Made by a program: the position numbers and the translations under genes | Shown here: positions 9,229 to 53,890 of the stretch, one piece after another | How positions within the stretch are numbered: the first letter of the stretch is position 1 | How the letters are laid out: each line of letters begins with the position of its first letter | Notes under the pieces: model-generated | The model's input: only the letters and a program-made list of their open reading frames with translations | Told to the model about the DNA's origin: nothing | Database searches by the model: none | Assembly (NCBI GenBank): GCA_965214835.1 | Contig: CBDCCK010000002.1 | Span: 2,528,001-2,592,000 of the forward strand | Length of the DNA: 64,000 nucleotides | Source of the DNA: Nitrosopumilaceae archaeon | GTDB taxonomy: Archaea; Thermoproteota; Nitrososphaeria; Nitrososphaerales; Nitrosopumilaceae | Direction of reading: 5' to 3'

Positions 9229-10671
9229 TTGGACCTAGGAATCTCTGCCCTCAGATACGTCGAAGAGGTAAAGTCGGGAGGCTTTACCGTCGAGGAGTTT
9301 GTCTCTGCAACGCTGGATCACATCAGGAGGCACGAAAGGCTGCACGCCTACCTCAGCGTCGACGAAAAGTCAGTAGAGCGGGCCCGCAGCATAGACAGGA
9401 AAATCAGGGCAGGGGAGCGGGTCGGCGCGTGCTACGGCATGCCCATATCCGTAAAGGACAACATCTGCATCCGCGACACCCCGACGACCTGCGCATCTCG
9501 GGTTCTAGAGGACTATGTGGCGCCGTATGACGCCACGGCAGTCTCAAGGCTTCGATCGGAGGACGCCATATTCGTCGGAAAGACGAACCTTGACGAGTTT
9601 GCCATGGGCCTGACCACCGAGTTTAGCGCCTACGGGCCCAGCCTCAACCCGTGGAATACGGACTGCGTTCCGGGTGGCTCGTCGGGTGGCAGCGCCGTTG
9701 CGGTGGCCGCCAACGAGTGCGCCGCATCCCTGGGATCCGACACGGGGGGCTCTGTCAGAAACCCCGCCAGCTTTTGCGGGGTCGTCGGATACAAGCCGAC
9801 CTACGGTCTGGTAAGCAGGTACGGCCTCATATCGTATGCCAACAGCATAGAGCAGATAGGACCCCTGGCAAGGACCGTCGAGGACGCCGCGTTTCTTCTG
9901 AACGTGATTTCCGGGCAGGATCCCAATGACAACACCACCGTGGATGGCAGGCAGGCAGACTATCTGGACGGAATCGACGCCGGAGTCGAGGGCAAGACGT
10001 TTGGAGTGGTCAGGGAGATGCTGGGCCACGGTGCAGACGGCAGGGTCGTAAGATCGACGAGGCAGGCGGCGGCCAGCCTAGAAAAGATGGGCGCGGCATG
10101 CACGGAGATCTCCCTGGACATGGTGGACTATTCTGTCGCCGCATACTATACGATAACTGCCACCGAGGCCGGAAGCAACCTGGCAAGGTACGACAACCTG
10201 CGCTACGGCTTTGACTTTCCGGTGGAGGGGTACGAGTACAACTCGTACATCTCAAAGGCAAGGAGCCGGTTCGGGCCGGAGGTGACCCGCAGGATGATCC
10301 TGGGTGGGTTCGTCCCGTCTGCAGGACACGCCGGAAGGTACTTTCTCAAGGCCCTGAAGGTGAAAAGCAAGCTGACCCGGGAGGTTGCAGAGGCGTTCAA
10401 GACCGTTGACTTTTTGCTGTCGCCTACCGTGCCCGTCCTGCCCTTCAGGCTGGGCTCAAAGATAGACGATCCCGTGGCGATGTTTCTGGTCGACATCAAC
10501 ACCATCACCGCAAACCTTACGGGCAAGCCCGCCGTCTCCGTGCCCTTTGACGTCATAGACGGCCTGCCCGTCGGGATGCAGATCATGGGACGTGCGATGG
10601 ACGACAAGTCCGTGTTGCAGGCAGCATATGCGCTGCAGGGTGCCGCAAAGCTGCCGGAGGTGCCACTGTGA
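9229..10671 (+). CDS. gatA: Asp/Glu-tRNA amidotransferase subunit A
   Basis: Amidase signature GGSSGGSA, GSDTGGSVRNPA. Confidence 0.97.
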   Translation: MDLGISALRYVEEVKSGGFTVEEFVSATLDHIRRHERLHAYLSVDEKSVERARSIDRKIRAGERVGACYGMPISVKDNICIRDTPTTCASRVLEDYVAPYDATAVSRLRSEDAIFVGKTNLDEFAMGLTTEFSAYGPSLNPWNTDCVPGGSSGGSAVAVAANECAASLGSDTGGSVRNPASFCGVVGYKPTYGLVSRYGLISYANSIEQIGPLARTVEDAAFLLNVISGQDPNDNTTVDGRQADYLDGIDAGVEGKTFGVVREMLGHGADGRVVRSTRQAAASLEKMGAACTEISLDMVDYSVAAYYTITATEAGSNLARYDNLRYGFDFPVEGYEYNSYISKARSRFGPEVTRRMILGGFVPSAGHAGRYFLKALKVKSKLTREVAEAFKTVDFLLSPTVPVLPFRLGSKIDDPVAMFLVDINTITANLTGKPAVSVPFDVIDGLPVGMQIMGRAMDDKSVLQAAYALQGAAKLPEVPL

Positions 10672-49059: not shown

Positions 49060-49852
49060 ATTCAATCACATTGGGTATTTCTTCTCTAATCTCAGACAAC
49101 ATTTTTGGAATGTTGATTGACTCGTTGATCAAACGTGTTAAACTGCGTAAATGTTCCTTCAAAACTTCTTCAATATCTTCAGGAAAGAATTGTCCGATGC
49201 CAGTAAATTTGACATTTTTTGTTTCACATTTTTTCAAAAAAAGATCTCCGACACCGTTCCAGATTTTGTTTTCTTTGAGCAATCGCCAGACATCATAGTA
49301 ATCCCTAATCTTTCTACGCTGGAGGATTGCTCTCAATTTTTCTGCCAGTATTGTTTCAAGTGAGTAAACGCTTACCGAGAATTTTGGATAGTCATAATAC
49401 TGTGGTACCGGCATTGCTACAATTTTGCCAATCTCCTCTTCGCGACTAATTTCAATTTTTAATCTAGCCGTGCTAATGGGCCCCGTATACTTGAACCTGC
49501 TTTGAAAATATCCCGGGTTTGTGTATGGTGATCCTTCAAGTTTTAACGCAATTTGGTTTTTTTGCATCACAATATTTGGTATTTCTTTTTCAATCGGCTT
49601 GACAAACTTTTCCCATGCTGTATTGCCTATGGGTGTGAAATCAAGATCTTCTGACAGCCTCCACTGGTTAGGAAAGTAGATCTTTGACAGGGCCGTACCT
49701 CCCTTGAAAACAAGCTTGTTAGAAATTGAACTGTTTGCAATGCCATAGAGCATCCATCCGAGAACATAGTCTTTTTCCACCGTGTCGACTCCGACTTTTA
49801 GCTCCACGGCCTTCTTCCTAAGTTCTTGATGTGAGATCATTATTGCGTCCAC
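49058..49852 (-). CDS. AbiEii/AbiGii nucleotidyltransferase toxin
   Basis: VEKDY, FKGGTAL, RLSEDLDF, AEKLRA, RDYYD. Confidence 0.92.
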   Translation of the reverse strand: MDAIMISHQELRKKAVELKVGVDTVEKDYVLGWMLYGIANSSISNKLVFKGGTALSKIYFPNQWRLSEDLDFTPIGNTAWEKFVKPIEKEIPNIVMQKNQIALKLEGSPYTNPGYFQSRFKYTGPISTARLKIEISREEEIGKIVAMPVPQYYDYPKFSVSVYSLETILAEKLRAILQRRKIRDYYDVWRLLKENKIWNGVGDLFLKKCETKNVKFTGIGQFFPEDIEEVLKEHLRSLTRLINESINIPKMLSEIREEIPNVIE

Positions 49853-50658
49853 CTGTCTGGATCAATTGTTGCATTGACAATCAGAGACCATTTTGTCTTT
49901 ATTTTGCCCCTTTTTGGAGAGAGTGGATCAAGCATGGAATATCCCTTTTTAACTTCTGCATTTTCCAAAACATTGAGACACTTATCAAGTCCCAGTACTT
50001 CGGAGATGTATCCAAGCCTTTTGACTACCGCGCCATTTCCAATCTTTACTGCCATCTTGGACAACGTTTCAAGCTTCAGCTCACTGGCAGAAAAATAAAG
50101 TGCCCTTGCAACCTCGTCAATGCCTCCCGCATGTTCCGGATGATCTAGGCAGTCTACGAATGTTTTTGCAGGCGTTGAGATGTTGACAGGCATGTTCTCA
50201 ACTGTGGTGATTGCGGCAACGCCAAACATTTTACGTGGAATTATTGTAACAAACTTGAATTCAACATTCAGTATTTTTCTAGAATTTCTTGGTTTTGGTG
50301 TGGCAATGTACACACAGGGCGGTGTCTGCTCTGTGAATCCGTAATGGTTGAGGGCGCTCCAATATCCGATGTAATATGGTTTTGCCAGCAGTGATCCTAT
50401 TACAAAGCTGTGAATGGTGTAACTGTCAGCTCCTTCCTCGCCTGCCTCAAATGGAGCTATAGCATAAACCCCCTTTCTTACTTTTAGAATCCATTTTTTT
50501 CTGACCAGCCAGTCTAGGACATTTTTTGGATTGCTTACTAGGTTCTTGACATCATCTAGCGTGAATATTGTCTTGTTTTTGTGACTGAGTCTTGCCAGAA
50601 CTCCCGCCTCCCTTTCCGACAATGTATGTCTGTATTTTTTTATGGGCATTCGAACCAT
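49840..50658 (-). CDS. AbiEi-family antitoxin
   Basis: LVRKKWILKVRKGVY, YIGYWSALNHYG, KTFVDCLDHPEHAGG. Confidence 0.9.
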   Translation of the reverse strand: MVRMPIKKYRHTLSEREAGVLARLSHKNKTIFTLDDVKNLVSNPKNVLDWLVRKKWILKVRKGVYAIAPFEAGEEGADSYTIHSFVIGSLLAKPYYIGYWSALNHYGFTEQTPPCVYIATPKPRNSRKILNVEFKFVTIIPRKMFGVAAITTVENMPVNISTPAKTFVDCLDHPEHAGGIDEVARALYFSASELKLETLSKMAVKIGNGAVVKRLGYISEVLGLDKCLNVLENAEVKKGYSMLDPLSPKRGKIKTKWSLIVNATIDPDRWTQ

Positions 50659-50967
50659 AACTCGAAAATCATTAAGAAAATATAGGTTTTTGGTGCTTAA
50701 AAGTATGACGGAAACCGGCTTGTTGCATAACCCCGATTTTAGGCACGAAAAACTGGCTGTTTTTACGCGTTCAGGCACGGTTATGCATCCATGGTAAAAC
50801 GCCCGCCAGTAACATGGCGACGTTCCTTTCGTCTTCTGATCCGTGCCTAGTCGGCCGGGCCGTGCTTTATAGCTAACGCTAGCAATACGCACGAGCCAGT
50901 CCTGTCGCACCTGCCGAGGTGCGGGCGGATCATTGGGTGGGTGGGTGGGGGATGGAAGGTGGCAATC

Positions 50968-52045
50968 CTATGCCGTTCCCACCAGTTCTGTCACCCTCTT
51001 GATCTTCCTGTCGTACAGGGCAGCATTGCGCGATGAATACACAGTCTTTGTCGTCAGCATGTGCCAGATTATCCTGAGCATCTTGTTTGCAACATGCGTT
51101 ATCGCTATGACGTGGTTGTTGCCGTTCCTTTTGCGGACCCTCTCGTAGAACTCCCTCATCCTGTCGTCGTGCTGTACGGCGACGTTGGCTATCTGGATCA
51201 TCAGCCAGTTGATCCTGCGGTTTGCATCCTTTTTCATGTGGCCGTGGTACTCGCGATCCCCCGACTGGTACACCCGGGGACACATGCCGGCCCAGGACAC
51301 AAGCTGGTTCGGCGATGGAAACCTGGTTATGTCACCGATCTCTGCTATCAGCAGCATTGCTGCAAAGGTGTCTATTCCCGTCATGCTCAACAGCAGCTTG
51401 GCATCCTCGTTCGATCCTGCCTGTCTTCCTATGTCCTCCCCTGCTTGGTCTATCTCCTCTGTGACGTGTACAATCCTCCTAGTGCAGCTTGCCAGTATCC
51501 TGTCATCGTTTGGCATGTTCAGCCTGGTATTGGAGATCTTCCGTATGGCCTTCTTGGAGTACATCGTGGATGCATCTATGGCTATGTCGTACTTGTCAAG
51601 CCAAGCTGTGCAGCCCGTTTATGACTGCGGTCCTCTCCTGCACCATCCGTATCCTGTACCTCATCAGCTCCCTGACATCCCTCAGCTCTGCTGATGCCAC
51701 GTAGCATCGTGGTATCATTCCGGCCCTGAGCGTTTCGGCTATCTTCCTTGCATCTATCGGGTCAGTCTTTACGCTGGTCTCTGATACTATCTTCATCTTG
51801 AGGGTGTTTGCAAGCAGTATGGGGATATGCTGATCCTCAAACGCCCTGAACGTCTTTAGCCACATGTTGCCCGTTGACTCGCACGCGGCCTGGCACTTTT
51901 TGTACTCTTTTTTCAGTCGTGCAGCAAGCTTTGATGCCTCCTTGTACGTGTTGTTATACGAGCCCTCCTCTAGCACGTGTCCCTTGGCGTCGATGACGCA
52001 CACTGCGCATTTTCTCTTTCCAATGTCTATTCCTATGCTTCTCAA
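50968..52045 (-). pseudogene. IS110 DEDD recombinase with a single +1 frameshift at ~51600
   Basis: GIDIGK, CESTG, KTDPIDA (RuvC-like) and IGDITRF...YQSG (Tnp20 serine); removing one G restores SLLDKYD. Confidence 0.92.
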
Positions 52046-52084
52046 TCCTTTTCTTTCACCTCCTTTTGGATATGGTTTGACAGA

Positions 52085-52225
52085 TCAGAAGCTGCATTCA
52101 TCCATCAGTGCGCGTAGCACAGGAACACAGCAGCTCGGATATCCCCATTCAACAGGTAGTGCGCGAAGCACATGCATAACGAGGGGTTGATCCATCACCC
52201 TGGCTACGGCGGGGGCGTTTTTATC
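52085..52225 (-). ncRNA. Predicted IS110 bridge/seek RNA (target loop then donor loop)
   Basis: Two internal-loop hairpins with GTGC-n5-GCAC tips whose loop strands match both element junctions; ends approximate. Confidence 0.82.
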
Positions 52226-52251
52226 ATGTGTTCAACAGGCTAGGAAACCGT

Positions 52252-52629
52252 AGCTTGTTGCATAACTCCGACTAGAGCCCAGCCAATTCTTCCGGATCAC
52301 TACCGGCGCTCGGTTCCTACACGGCAGCCACCGCCTCTGCGATCCACTTGTTGTACAGCCATATCCTCAACTTTACCTCCTGCACTATATTGGACCACTT
52401 GAGGGCCTTTACGTCCTCGCCAAACATGCGCTTTATGGCCGATATCACGATCTCGACGATCCATCTGATGCCAAAGCCGACCGTGCTCTTCGGGTACCGC
52501 AGGTTCTCCTGCCTCTCCTCCTTTGATAGGCTGCCCACCGGCTCCTCGGGGCCGCCCCCGAGCTGCCATCGCACCAGCCGGCCCCACTTGTCGCCGCTGC
52601 CCAGGTGCATCTTGACAAATCCTCGCCTT
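52252..52629 (-). pseudogene. 3' fragment of an IS5/IS903-like element
   Basis: RWIVEIVISAIKRMFGE; end AGCTTGTTGCATAAC matches the MITE IR. Confidence 0.75.
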
Positions 52630-53890
52630 TGGTGCGGACCCCAAAAAAAAGAAGGAACGATCTGCAATGCACACTTTTTTAGTTCGGAGGTCGAATCACA
52701 GATATGACCAAGAAAACATGGAGTACGCAGGACAAGATAGGGATAGTCATGGAGCACTTAAACACCAACATCGAAACGGCAGATCTATGCCGCCGCCACA
52801 ACCTCTCCCCCAAGACGTTTTACCAGTGGAGGAAACGCTTTTTGCAGGGCGGACGCGCATCGCTGTCAGGCAGCGGCCCTGCAACGGCCGAAGGCAGACT
52901 CCAAAAGGAGAACGAGTCGCTCAAGCACATCATCGGCGAGTATGCCATAGCCAATGCGCTTTTAAAAAAAACCTTGGAGGCAGGCAAAAGGTGAACATTG
53001 CAATACTGCTAAGGGAGAGGGGCTGGAGCATGGACAAGACCCTGCAGTACAGCGGCGCCTCCAGAACTGCGTGGTACCACGTAAAAAAGCCGCAAAGACA
53101 GACAGAACCGGATCCGCAGACGGTCTCATTTGTCAGGGAGATCGGCAACAAGAGGCCCACATACGGCACGCGCCGCATGGCAGCCCAGATAAGTCGCGAG
53201 ACCGGCGTGCCGACAAACCGCAAAAGGATACAGCAGATATGCCGCAAAATAGGCTGGATCACGCCTAAAAAGACCAAAAACGACATAATAAGAGCAGGAA
53301 AAAGAGACAGGTTCAAGCCCACAGGGCCAAACCAGCTGTGGGAGACGGACATTACATACGTCTGGTGCGGTATAGACGGGTGGTGCTACTGCTTTAACGT
53401 AATCGATACGTTCACCAGGAAGTGGATAACATACGTCTTTGCCACGCAGGCCACCGCACAGGTCGCAGTCGAATCGCTGACAAGAGCAGTCTCCACGATT
53501 TCGGCAGACGAGGCAAGAGGACTGCTGGTCAGAAGTGACAATGGGACCCAGTACACGAGCCGCGAATTCAAGGAGAGTATGAAGATCCTGGGAGTCCGGT
53601 GTGAGTACATCTGGCACAACACACCCGAGCAGAACGGACATGTCGAGTCCTTCCACAAGACCCTCAAAAAGGAGTACGTCTGGCCACATGACTTTGCCAG
53701 GTTCCAGGATGCCGAGGCCGTCCTGGCAGAGGCGTTTGCAGATTACAACAAAGACAGGATCCACTCGGCACTGGGATACCTGACGCCGGACGAGTTTGTC
53801 CGGAAAATGCAGGAGGTGCCACAAAAATGAGCGATCAGAGCGTGCGTAAAATATCGCAAAAAGCGTTCCTATTTTATGGGGTCCACTCCA
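52630..53890 (+). mobile_element. IS3-family element (orfA 52704-52994, orfB 52991-53830)
   Basis: TGGTGCGGACCCC / TGGAGTGGACCCC IRs; WETDITY, SDNGTQY, NGHVESFH; no TSD. Confidence 0.92.

Follow-up and report, generated by a model that had tools for sequence, protein, structure and literature searches.

How does one transposable element come to lie, in a constant orientation, within the terminal inverted repeat of another? The question is raised by a locus in a stretch of 64,000 nucleotides from an archaeon of the Nitrosopumilaceae, of the ammonia-oxidising type (hereafter the window, G000:C2:2528001-2592000, where G000 is our label for the source genome). There, an insertion sequence (IS) of the IS110 family splits a MITE (miniature inverted-repeat transposable element) of about 78 bp. 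We conclude that this IS, at 50786-52234, is a copy of a multicopy archaeal element which very probably moves by RNA-guided recombination of the bridge-RNA or seekRNA kind. Systems of this kind are already known, both for RNA-guided recombination in IS110 and IS1111 elements and for the targeting of inverted repeats. To our knowledge, the bridge recombinases characterised so far are bacterial. The host here is an archaeon, as was supposed in an earlier reading of this DNA that ran no database searches (hereafter the sequence-only reading): its small-subunit ribosomal RNA gene scores 1452.6 bits with the archaeal model and 1089.2 bits with the bacterial one.

The two junctions of the element carry the argument. 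Read on the plus strand, the left one (50780-50792) is GTTATG-CA-TCCAT and the right one (52227-52239) is TGTGTT-CA-ACAGG. On the minus strand, which encodes the recombinase, two parallel hairpins stand upstream of the gene, each with an internal loop (Table 1). In the first, the predicted target-binding hairpin, the 5' arm of the loop, GTTATGCA (52180-52173), is complementary to TG+CATAAC of the right flank on the recombinase-sense strand. Its 3' arm, CCTGTTG (52156-52150), repeats the left flank CCTGT+TG exactly and is followed by an AAU whose AA is the first two bases of the element. In the second, the predicted donor-binding hairpin, the 5' arm TGTGTTC (52129-52123) is complementary to G+AACACA at the start of the left end, and the 3' arm ATGGATGAA (52105-52097) is the right-end tail ATGGA followed by TG and by the first left-end bases AA, i.e. 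the junction of a circle. Given these two junctions, loop 1 carries the sequence of the flanks and loop 2 that of the element's own ends. The sequence-only reading had described both hairpins, their internal loops and this correspondence, and direct reading of the minus strand gives the same picture. It had also identified the target as the inverted repeat shared by an IS5-type IS and a MITE, which we could verify. Within the window, the left repeat of the MITE (50717) and the end of an IS5-type fragment (52252) both carry GTTATGCAACAAG, one mismatch away from the reconstituted target; two matches of this type were found versus 0.08 expected by chance. An intact copy of the MITE, at C2 ~3110708-3110777, has both inverted repeats uninterrupted.

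We searched the genome for other copies of the element by BLAST and obtained 35 matches. Eight copies make up the subfamily of the window element. They are 97.9-99.2% identical and share loop 1 (GTTATGCA / CCTGTTG, with TTTGTTG in one copy). All eight have TG at both junctions and lie between ...CTGT|TG and TG|CATAAC, so that the mapping proposed in the sequence-only reading came out as expected. Their right flank is CATAAC in 8/8 cases and their left flank is CCTGT in six, ACTGT in one and TCTGT in one; beyond a 'tag' the sequences are unrelated between copies. The right flanks fall into four repeated classes, which are the two ends of an IS of ~1.4 kb and the two ends of the ~78-bp MITE. The IS carries an open reading frame (ORF) of 404 amino acids assigned to the IS5 family (NF033579, 166.7 bits for a cut-off of 140). 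The uninterrupted target, TGTTGCATAAC, is indeed multicopy: it occurs at 31 sites in the genome, each at the end of an IS5-type IS or MITE (CCTGT in 4, CTTGT in 12, TTTGT in 9 and others in 6). The crossover lies 6-8 bp inside the target inverted repeat and its orientation relative to the repeat is constant. Hence, the element lands in other transposons, in one orientation, and splits their repeat. The 12 intact CTTGT sites of the genome include none with a copy of the window subfamily, and the two inverted repeats that adjoin the element in the window, which have CTTGT and not CCTGT, are empty.

Two further subfamilies carry other guides. The second has three copies (85-92% identity) with loop 1 CATTTTCA / GTAGTTG, located after ...cAGTAGT|TG; the copy with an intact gene (514649-513238) has the right flank TG|AAAATG as well. 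The corresponding sequence, GTAGTTGAAAAT, is found at 23 sites and is the tip of another IS, whose 415-amino-acid ORF has a DDE_Tnp_1 domain and is ISH3-like (NF033541, 111 bits, below the cut-off of 225). The third subfamily has four copies (~66% identity) with loop 1 TCTTCCCA / ACTTCTG, located after ACTTC|TG (ACTTT in one). Here, CTTCTGGGAAG occurs at 72 sites, mostly in the inverted repeat of a MITE of ~117 bp (29 pairs at that spacing). The three subfamilies thus differ in loop 1, each loop matches its own flanks, and each reads the end of a different transposon.

The association between loops and flanks extends beyond this genome. Searched with R1, a covariance model of the guide module, G000 yields 26 copies. 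Within the same family the module is matched in 29 of 151 genomes, spread over 11 of 27 genera; G094 is counted among them, its locus L063 being outside the 70-row alignment described below and all other analyses. In a phylum-wide sample the matches are in 6 of 151 genomes, namely G000, four more of its family and one from another family. When genome contigs were searched with the intact recombinase a single locus was found, in a metagenome-assembled genome of the same genus, and further relatives were found by genome searches. For the guide-flank tests we aligned to the model 70 module matches from G000 and other genomes of several genera, anchored the junctions on constant features only and kept one representative per distinct guide. 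On its 5' side (11 nt), loop 1 has 2 nt, then 6 nt that complement the right half-site, 2 nt that complement the core and a final 1 nt; the 3' side (12 nt) consists of 2 nt, 5 nt identical to the left half-site, TG and AAU. The layout of loop 2 is parallel.

The test on the left flank took 54 of the 70 rows, the others being without the 12-nt loop, without a GAA anchor inside 16 nt, or without 20 nt of sequence upstream. Over 29 distinct guides, the 3' arm of loop 1 agrees with the left flank at 102/145 positions (41.2 +/- 5.8 when shuffled, 0/20000 shuffles as good). For the right flank, the test required an exact copy of the loop-2 7-mer downstream, preceded by a T..C context, which 31 of the 70 rows had; one of them had no flank and 30 were scored. 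The 5' arm of loop 1 agrees with this flank at 54/90 positions over 15 distinct guides (shuffled 24.7 +/- 5.0, 0/20000). The 5' arm of loop 2 agrees with the start of the left end at 79/108 positions over 18 distinct guides (shuffled 62.8 +/- 3.1, 0/20000), with 37/53 rows within one mismatch. As for the 3' arm of loop 2, four variants of its 7-mer (ATGGATG, ATAGATG, ATAGGTG and ATGAGTG) recur behind the subterminal repeat at the right end. The covariation of loop and flank among homologues, on which the sequence-only reading had made itself depend, is thus observed on both sides.

Some loci of these other genomes deserve a separate mention. In L040 and L026 (G010:C1 ~1328214 and ~1542295), the left end lacks its first 8 bp (AACACATG) and the left flank is joined at the next internal TG; loop 1 still fits this flank (TCATT-TG). 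Judging from the joined sequences, these junctions look like recombination at a second TG. In another genus, the element of G059:C1 (L044, L076-L082) lies in tag|TCTGT-TG-CACAAC, which is again the tip of an IS5-like inverted repeat. Its loop-1 5' arm matches at 4/6 positions only and has no complement to the core.

The region upstream of the recombinase also shows conserved structure. The 121-nt core folds as a closing stem around both hairpins at -41 kcal/mol (z -2.29), and 4/200 shuffles fold as well. We aligned 19 left ends, all distinct representatives, from G000 and six other genomes, leaving out L012, L032, L034 and L035, which are truncated or degenerate, and near-identical siblings. 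RNAalifold, unaided, recovered from this alignment the inner and outer stems of both hairpins. Covariation was counted on a 31-pair structure of our own, to which we added the long-range closing helix GAUGGAUCA / UGAUCYRUC. In this structure 88.7% of cells are paired, versus 28-50% with the partners slid, and changes on both sides are seen in 13/31 pairs; 0/500 shuffles attain these figures. In the closing helix, 5/8 pairs have changes on both sides and 91% of cells are paired, and the double changes include GGAUCA/UGAUCC, GGAUCG/CGAUCC and GGAACG/CGUUCC. Compensatory changes keep four helices. The first helix of the model, at the 5' side, is weakly paired (61% of cells) and overlaps the subterminal inverted repeat; it may be a DNA signal. 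The downstream non-coding region of 180 bp gives no match to R1.

We propose the following mechanism. The 190-bp left end would encode a structured RNA of ~120 nt in which a closing helix surrounds two hairpins, each with an internal loop. The 5' arm of loop 1 would pair with the recombinase-sense strand of the right half-site (TG-CATAAC), and at the left half-site (CCTGT-TG) the 3' arm with the opposite strand. Loop 2 would likewise read the joined ends of the element (ATGGA-TG-AACACA). The DEDD/Ser recombinase would then exchange strands at the TG core common to target and donor. Because the crossover falls inside the inverted repeat, the host transposon would presumably be immobilised.

The long right non-coding end holds the block GCTAGCGTTAGCTATAAA ... 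CTAGGCACGGATCAGAAG, which elements of G000, G010, G004, G059, G077 and G080 keep at 84-89 nt from the right end. By its motifs, this block (50840-50885 in the window, with TATAAA at 50871-50866) looks like an archaeal B recognition element and TATA box directed out of the element, i.e. a predicted promoter. In a circle, this predicted promoter would read into the guide RNA. Besides, a 12-nt inverted repeat, 92% complementary, links 50833-50844 (right-end motif ACGGATCAGAAG) with 52080-52091 (the 3' strand of the closing stem of the RNA); this could serve as another long-range pairing within a transcript derived from a circle, or be a second repeat acting at the DNA level. The circle junction that the sequence-only reading had hoped to see did not turn up: a circle or tandem junction gives 0 matches in the assembled genome, and the contigs of four sequencing runs from four studies, which we compared with the window and which cannot show rare forms, have no joint skipping the element and no circle junction among the loose ends listed. 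A search of sequencing runs listed no RNA run containing this stretch. In three runs the loose ends at 50787 run on into ACAGGCTA.... We considered these as traces of an empty allele and rejected the idea; their further sequence differs between contigs, which makes them other uninterrupted copies of the multicopy target.

In G000, a recombinase gene is missing behind 11 of the 26 RNA modules. Of these 11, four are elements of ~372 bp composed of a left and a right end (G000:C2 639989, 2139577, 2955988 and 3124522), and further gene-less module fragments lie on the same contig at 10108, 655669, 2928842, 504218, 2915634, 2772765 and 1869341. G002, from the same genus, has four to five gene-less modules (contigs C58, C67, C34 and C27). 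The right end of the ~372-bp elements is ...CATAGATG, and in three the 3' arm of loop 2 is changed accordingly, to ATAGATG or GTAGATG. The right end CATAGATG and loop 2 ATAGATGA have thus changed together in the miniature derivatives. Some of these have loop-1 sequences of their own. The element m2139582 matches its own loop 1 at 5/5 positions in the left flank and has the right flank CATAAC, and m2955988 matches its own at 4/5 positions on the left and 4/6 on the right.

Two observations concern elements that fit less simply. The right flanks of 1519221, 639989 and 3124522 (G000:C2) belong to another repeat, ...(T)CGCCTAATTCGCC..., and not to the half-site predicted by loop 1; the interiors of 10108 and 2928842 are likewise concerned. 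That some mismatched right flanks abut another repeat, ...CGCCTAATTC..., suggests a rearrangement or a further target. Two miniature elements have loop 1 ACGCGACA / GAGGTTG, which fits GGGGT-TG-(T/C)(C/T)GCGTAATTC. Judging from these sequences, there may be a fourth target family, or rearrangements made by the recombinase.

The enzyme itself clearly belongs to the IS110 family, in agreement with the sequence-only reading. It has the domains PF01548 and PF02371, the motif GLCPRVYQSG with its conserved SG, and matches in the PDB to the ISCro4 and IS621 transposases; a single short core at both junctions, a conserved target and the lack of classical terminal inverted repeats complete the family traits. 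The intact paralogue, P0001 (G000:C2 513383-514459), scores 234 bits with NF033542, 'IS110 family RNA-guided transposase' (cut-off 140). In the window copy the gene is interrupted by a frameshift, which the sequence-only reading proposed to repair. It is not damage peculiar to this copy. The 1-nt insertion is common to 10 copies, i.e. all 8 of the window subfamily plus 1519221 and 1302399, which are 8-12% different and have another loop 1. It falls exactly at the end of the PF01548 domain and leaves the rest of the protein in the +1 frame. Between frameshift-bearing lineages the ratio of nonsynonymous to synonymous substitution rates (dN/dS) is 0.18-0.34 in both halves, at dS 0.14-0.32, as under purifying selection. 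No indel is listed at the site in the contigs that span it, which come from three studies. The frameshift was not found in six uninterrupted relatives (G010, G004, G059, G077, G080 and G088), with one open frame each, and its conservation is thus seen within G000 only. The window copy may be mobilised in trans by the intact paralogue, expressed through +1 frameshifting, or translated as a split enzyme.

Quite possibly, the window copy and its seven siblings are non-autonomous, bringing their own guide RNA and ends and taking the recombinase from the single intact paralogue. Only one G000 row covers residues 1-359 without a stop, and this copy has loop 2 and ends identical to those of the window subfamily. 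The ~372-bp elements, devoid of the recombinase gene, keep the RNA module and both ends, and in at least two cases the flanking half-sites are close to the element's own loop 1. The modules of the sister genome G002 without a downstream recombinase gene point the same way, as does the ability of the IS621 bridge RNA to work in trans (PMC11208160; this source, PMC11187229 and PMC12288879 are cited here and below for the parts of the text that were available). Yet, purifying selection on both halves of the frameshifted genes is unexpected if these genes are dead, and, at the protein level, the halves share only 79-89% identity with the intact paralogue.

One might alternatively speculate that the frameshifted copies are not defective and that the window copy is autonomous, either by +1 ribosomal frameshifting at ...GCU UGA C or by cooperation between a RuvC-domain protein and a coiled-coil/Tnp-domain protein. 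The sharing of one insertion by the whole subfamily and by two diverged copies with another loop 1, the open reading frames kept in both halves, their dN/dS, the position of the break at the domain end and the lack of indels at the site in contigs from three studies all speak for this. We nevertheless hold it for rather unlikely. The site has no slippery run and GCU is unable to re-pair on CUU; the relatives in the six genomes named above read through in a single frame. The constraint could predate the frameshift if the latter spread between copies by recombination, and the identity profiles do not put the frameshift-bearing copies in one clean clade. Finally, there is an intact paralogue, identical in loop 2 and in its ends, at hand to act in trans.

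Several points weigh against RNA-guided recombination of the window element and must be considered with care. Its recombinase gene is frameshifted. The RNA is known here from the DNA sequence alone, and from this we infer transcription, binding of the RNA by the recombinase, a circular intermediate and the lost mobility of the host transposon. For positions 50000-53500, Rfam has no relevant family at E values up to 1, and the best matches, to unrelated families, have E 0.28-0.84 (a scan of the window gave only a tRNA at the gathering score). The full left end of 189 nt, taken as a single sequence, folds no better than shuffles (z -0.73). The matching between guides and sites is imperfect, since the rows within one mismatch are 40/54 for the left flank and only 16/30 for the right. 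Right flanks unrelated to the loop are seen at L018, L036, L048, L061, 1519221 and 1302399. The last base of the loop-2 5' arm is not complementary to the core, and in G004 and G059 the loop-1 5' arm is without a Watson-Crick complement to the TG core. Moreover, the sequences used for covariation are mutually related and the 70-row alignment was fitted to our own model.

A remaining alternative is that the matches are features of the DNA, such as protein-binding or homology sites in the left end, or belong to an RNA from the other strand. Transcription is a deduction from sequence, and the first helix, weakly paired and overlapping the subterminal repeat, may act as DNA, but we regard this alternative as very improbable: in each loop, one arm matches one strand and the other arm the opposite strand of neighbouring half-sites, with an overlap at the core, which is the geometry of a bridge and not of a target copy, four helices are kept by compensatory changes, and the family is experimentally RNA-guided. 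An RNA from the antisense strand was rejected on the geometry of the arms; its 5' arm would comprise core and right half, not left half and core, and would fit neither the IS621 nor the IS1111-type geometry as given in the sources available to us.

How does the element compare with those in which guides have been demonstrated? In IS621, ISEc11 and ISEc21 the geometry of the guide RNA is experimentally established (PMC11208160, PMC11187229). The sequence-only reading held that the archaeal element works in the same way, which is right for the principle and wrong for the layout, since the arm order is the reverse of that in IS621 and ISEc21, and IS1111-like, and the subterminal repeats are long. 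In seekRNAs of the IS1111 type the complement of the top strand comes first, whereas in ISEc21, of the IS110 type, the order is reversed (Siddiquee et al. 2024, PMC11187229). IS1111-type elements have subterminal inverted repeats of 11-13 bp and usually a downstream non-coding region (PMC11187229). The same source gives exceptions in the position of this region, upstream in ISMtsp17 and on both sides in ISHvo10 and ISAcp5; its available text describes no RNA for them.

The window element resembles IS621 (PMC11208160) in its DEDD/Ser recombinase of the same Pfam families, in an RNA that the left end encodes upstream of the gene (the hairpins at 52186-52090 precede the TTG start at 52045), in the succession of target loop and donor loop, and in the use of repeated sequences as targets. 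Also as in IS621, the two arms of each loop, of which the 5' one is the longer (8 nt in this element, versus 7 nt for the 3' one), address opposite strands and overlap at a core of 2 nt. It differs from IS621, and from the IS110 group in the sense of IS621 and ISEc21, in the polarity of the arms relative to the gene: in the right half, the sense strand TGCATAAC is complementary to the 5' arm GTTATGCA, and in the left half the sense strand has the same sequence as the 3' arm. As core the element has TG instead of CT, and the subterminal repeats are of ~18 bp (arms of ~18-21 bp) where they are of 2-3 bp in IS621 and absent or of 2-3 bp in the group. Other differences are the long right non-coding end (~180 bp), the archaeal host and the covarying long-range helix that closes both hairpins, no counterpart of which was found for IS621 in the available part of PMC11208160. 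The similarity to the IS621 protein is remote (phmmer, 37.9 bits, in the C-terminal part only).

With IS1111-type elements (ISEc11, ISKpn4 and ISPa11; PMC11187229) the window element shares subterminal repeats with short asymmetric terminal extensions, the GL-P----SG motif and the arm order. Unlike them, it has its guide RNA upstream and not downstream of the gene. Its extensions are of 4 and 2 bp plus the core, versus 7 (or 6) and 3 bp, and the spacing thus differs from that of the IS1111 type. An IS1111-like arm order and IS1111-like repeats, together with an upstream RNA, mean that the RNA-DNA geometry is as known, whereas the cassette of gene plus guide is arranged unlike that of both groups.

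Landing in the inverted repeat of another transposon has precedents in bacteria: IS4321 and IS5075 target the inverted repeats of Tn21, and IS1383 those of IS1384 (according to titles cited in PMC11208160 and PMC11187229). As far as these sources go, IS4321 and IS5075 are, like ours, DEDD-family elements found at a fixed position and in a fixed orientation inside another transposon's terminal inverted repeat, but they are bacterial, of the IS1111 type and with a downstream RNA region. In R751, the right flank of IS4321 is a Tn21-type inverted repeat and the downstream non-coding region has AAAACGGAA, complementary to the sense strand of this flank. What sets our case apart is the presence in one archaeal genome of three sister subfamilies, each on the inverted repeat of a different transposon. 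The IS4321 transposase has a weak full-length similarity to P0001 (22% identity, E 2e-14, 59.7 bits); this score and the 37.9 bits of the C-terminal part of IS621 are pairwise values only, obtained by different methods. The miniature derivatives are reminiscent of ISPpu9 and MITEPpu9 of Pseudomonas putida (PMC12288879), where an IS110-family element has gene-less derivatives that keep the element ends and are thought to move in trans. However, MITEPpu9 carries the small RNA Ssr9, which is not required for transposition, whereas the short derivatives here carry the guide module with a loop 1 of their own.

The best plasmid match of P0001 is an element of the Haloarcula sp. GH36 plasmid (NZ_CP142029.1, 253752-254744; 34.6% identity, E 1e-48). 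This element (locus L089, 253076-255438) has the same upstream two-loop layout and a perfect subterminal inverted repeat of 13 bp; being present in a single copy, its boundaries are set by the inverted repeat alone. The 3' arms of its hairpins are ATAGGTG, as at the right end, and GAGAT-TG-AC, as at the left junction. From the 5' arm one expects TG-TTGATA, and the actual right flank is TG-TTGGTA. Unlike the window element, it comes from a different archaeal phylum, and R1 matches only part of its loop 2 (10.3 bits, E 0.26). The layout is thus not confined to one archaeal phylum. R1 gave no convincing match on a Rhizobium plasmid element (28.6% identity) or on three IS110-family loci (~30%), and the guide layout could not be parsed by eye in the Rhizobium element's non-coding ends.

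We tentatively put forward a wider scheme, which we consider doubtful as a whole. Nitrosopumilaceae and haloarchaea might share a third architecture of bridge recombinase, with an upstream guide, IS1111-type polarity and a closing helix, specialised on the tips of DDE transposons and MITEs. It might work as a distributed system, in which one or a few recombinase genes, possibly +1-frameshifted or made of two polypeptides, serve many guide modules, some of them guide-only, and it might act as a brake on other transposons of IS-rich archaeal genomes through reversible splitting of their repeats. In the literature searched, we found no paper that deals with how bridge RNAs are arranged in archaea or with miniature elements that carry guides. 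Nor did we find there a description of the archaeal clade, of its hybrid layout with closing helix, of the three-fold targeting of transposon ends, of the guide-only derivatives or of the shared frameshift, although supplements may hold predictions.

Bridge recombinases are intensely studied as programmable tools for the insertion, inversion and excision of DNA. The archaeal clade offers a case of natural reprogramming, with at least 29 distinct target guides together with their sites. Its compact RNA of ~120 nt mixes features that separate the IS110 and IS1111 groups, which bears on how guide modules move between element ends in evolution. Three sister elements on different transposon ends in one genome make a clean system to ask if insertions silence their hosts. 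The guide-only miniatures and the conserved frameshift make the use in trans of one recombinase by many guides directly testable.

Table 1. Parts of the IS110-family element and of its surroundings; positions are counted from the first letter of the window.
Feature	Position	Strand	Details
Whole IS110-family element, 1449 bp	50786-52234	-	Ends set by 8 near-identical copies with unrelated outer flanks; Pfam and NCBIfam
Core dinucleotide, one copy per element end	52233-52234 and 50786-50787		TG in element orientation, CA on the plus strand
Left subterminal inverted repeat	52208-52228	-	CATGATAAAAACGCCCCCGCC, 4 bp in from the core, with an A-rich TATA-like stretch; read from sequence
Predicted bridge-like RNA core	52079-52196	-	Long-range closing stem, GAUGGAUCA (52196-52188) with UGAUCUGUC (52087-52079), around both guide hairpins
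Hairpin 1	52186-52143	-	CCCC / tcGTTATGCAt / GTGC-ttcgc-GCAC / taCCTGTTGaat / GGGG
Hairpin 2	52135-52090	-	AGCTGC / TGTGTTCct / GTGC-tacgc-GCAC / tgATGGATGAAt / GCAGCT
Recombinase, N-terminal half	51596-52045	-	RuvC-like DEDD domain, TTG start behind GGAGGTGA, UGA at 51598-51596; PF01548 E 1.2e-28, residues 4-148
Shared frameshift site	51595-51607	-	AGCTTGGCTTGAC, 0 frame ...GCU UGA C; the single intact copy of the genome has AGCCTGCTTGAC
Recombinase, C-terminal half	50968-51595 (ATG ORF 50968-51564)	-	+1 frame; coiled coil and Transposase_20 with SG motif; PF02371 E 1.6e-26
Long right non-coding end	50788-50967	-	Holds the block GCTAGCGTTAGCTATAAA (TATAAA 50871-50866) ... CTAGGCACGGATCAGAAG, pointing outward across the right end
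Right subterminal inverted repeat	50790-50807	+	Plus-strand CATGGTAAAACGCCCGCC, 2 bp in from the core; read from sequence
Outer half of target	52235-52242	+	ACAGG (= CCTGT, left target in element orientation) and CTA, tip of the right inverted repeat of the MITE
Body of the ~78-bp MITE that was hit	50717-50785	+	Left inverted repeat GGCTTGTTGCATAAC...; GTTATG (50780-50785) is the inner target half
IS5-family fragment adjoining the element	52252-52670	+	Its end is the same inverted repeat with CTTGT for CCTGT, unoccupied; cut by an IS3-type element from ~52667

The two subterminal repeats of the window element pair imperfectly, with one mismatch and gaps, and it is because of the gaps that an automated repeat search did not list them. 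On the right side of the locus, an IS3-type transposase (rve, rve_3, HTH_21) with a small ORF upstream occupies 52667-53830 on the plus strand and truncates the neighbouring IS5-family copy. Together with the IS5 fragment and the IS110 element, it makes three transposon families nested or adjacent within 3 kb. On the other side, next to the MITE, the gene at 49840-50650 (minus strand) encodes the AbiEi antitoxin domains PF09407 (E 2.6e-13) and PF13338 (E 4.5e-06), and the MITE with its IS110 element lies just upstream of the likely ATG of this gene, at ~50647.

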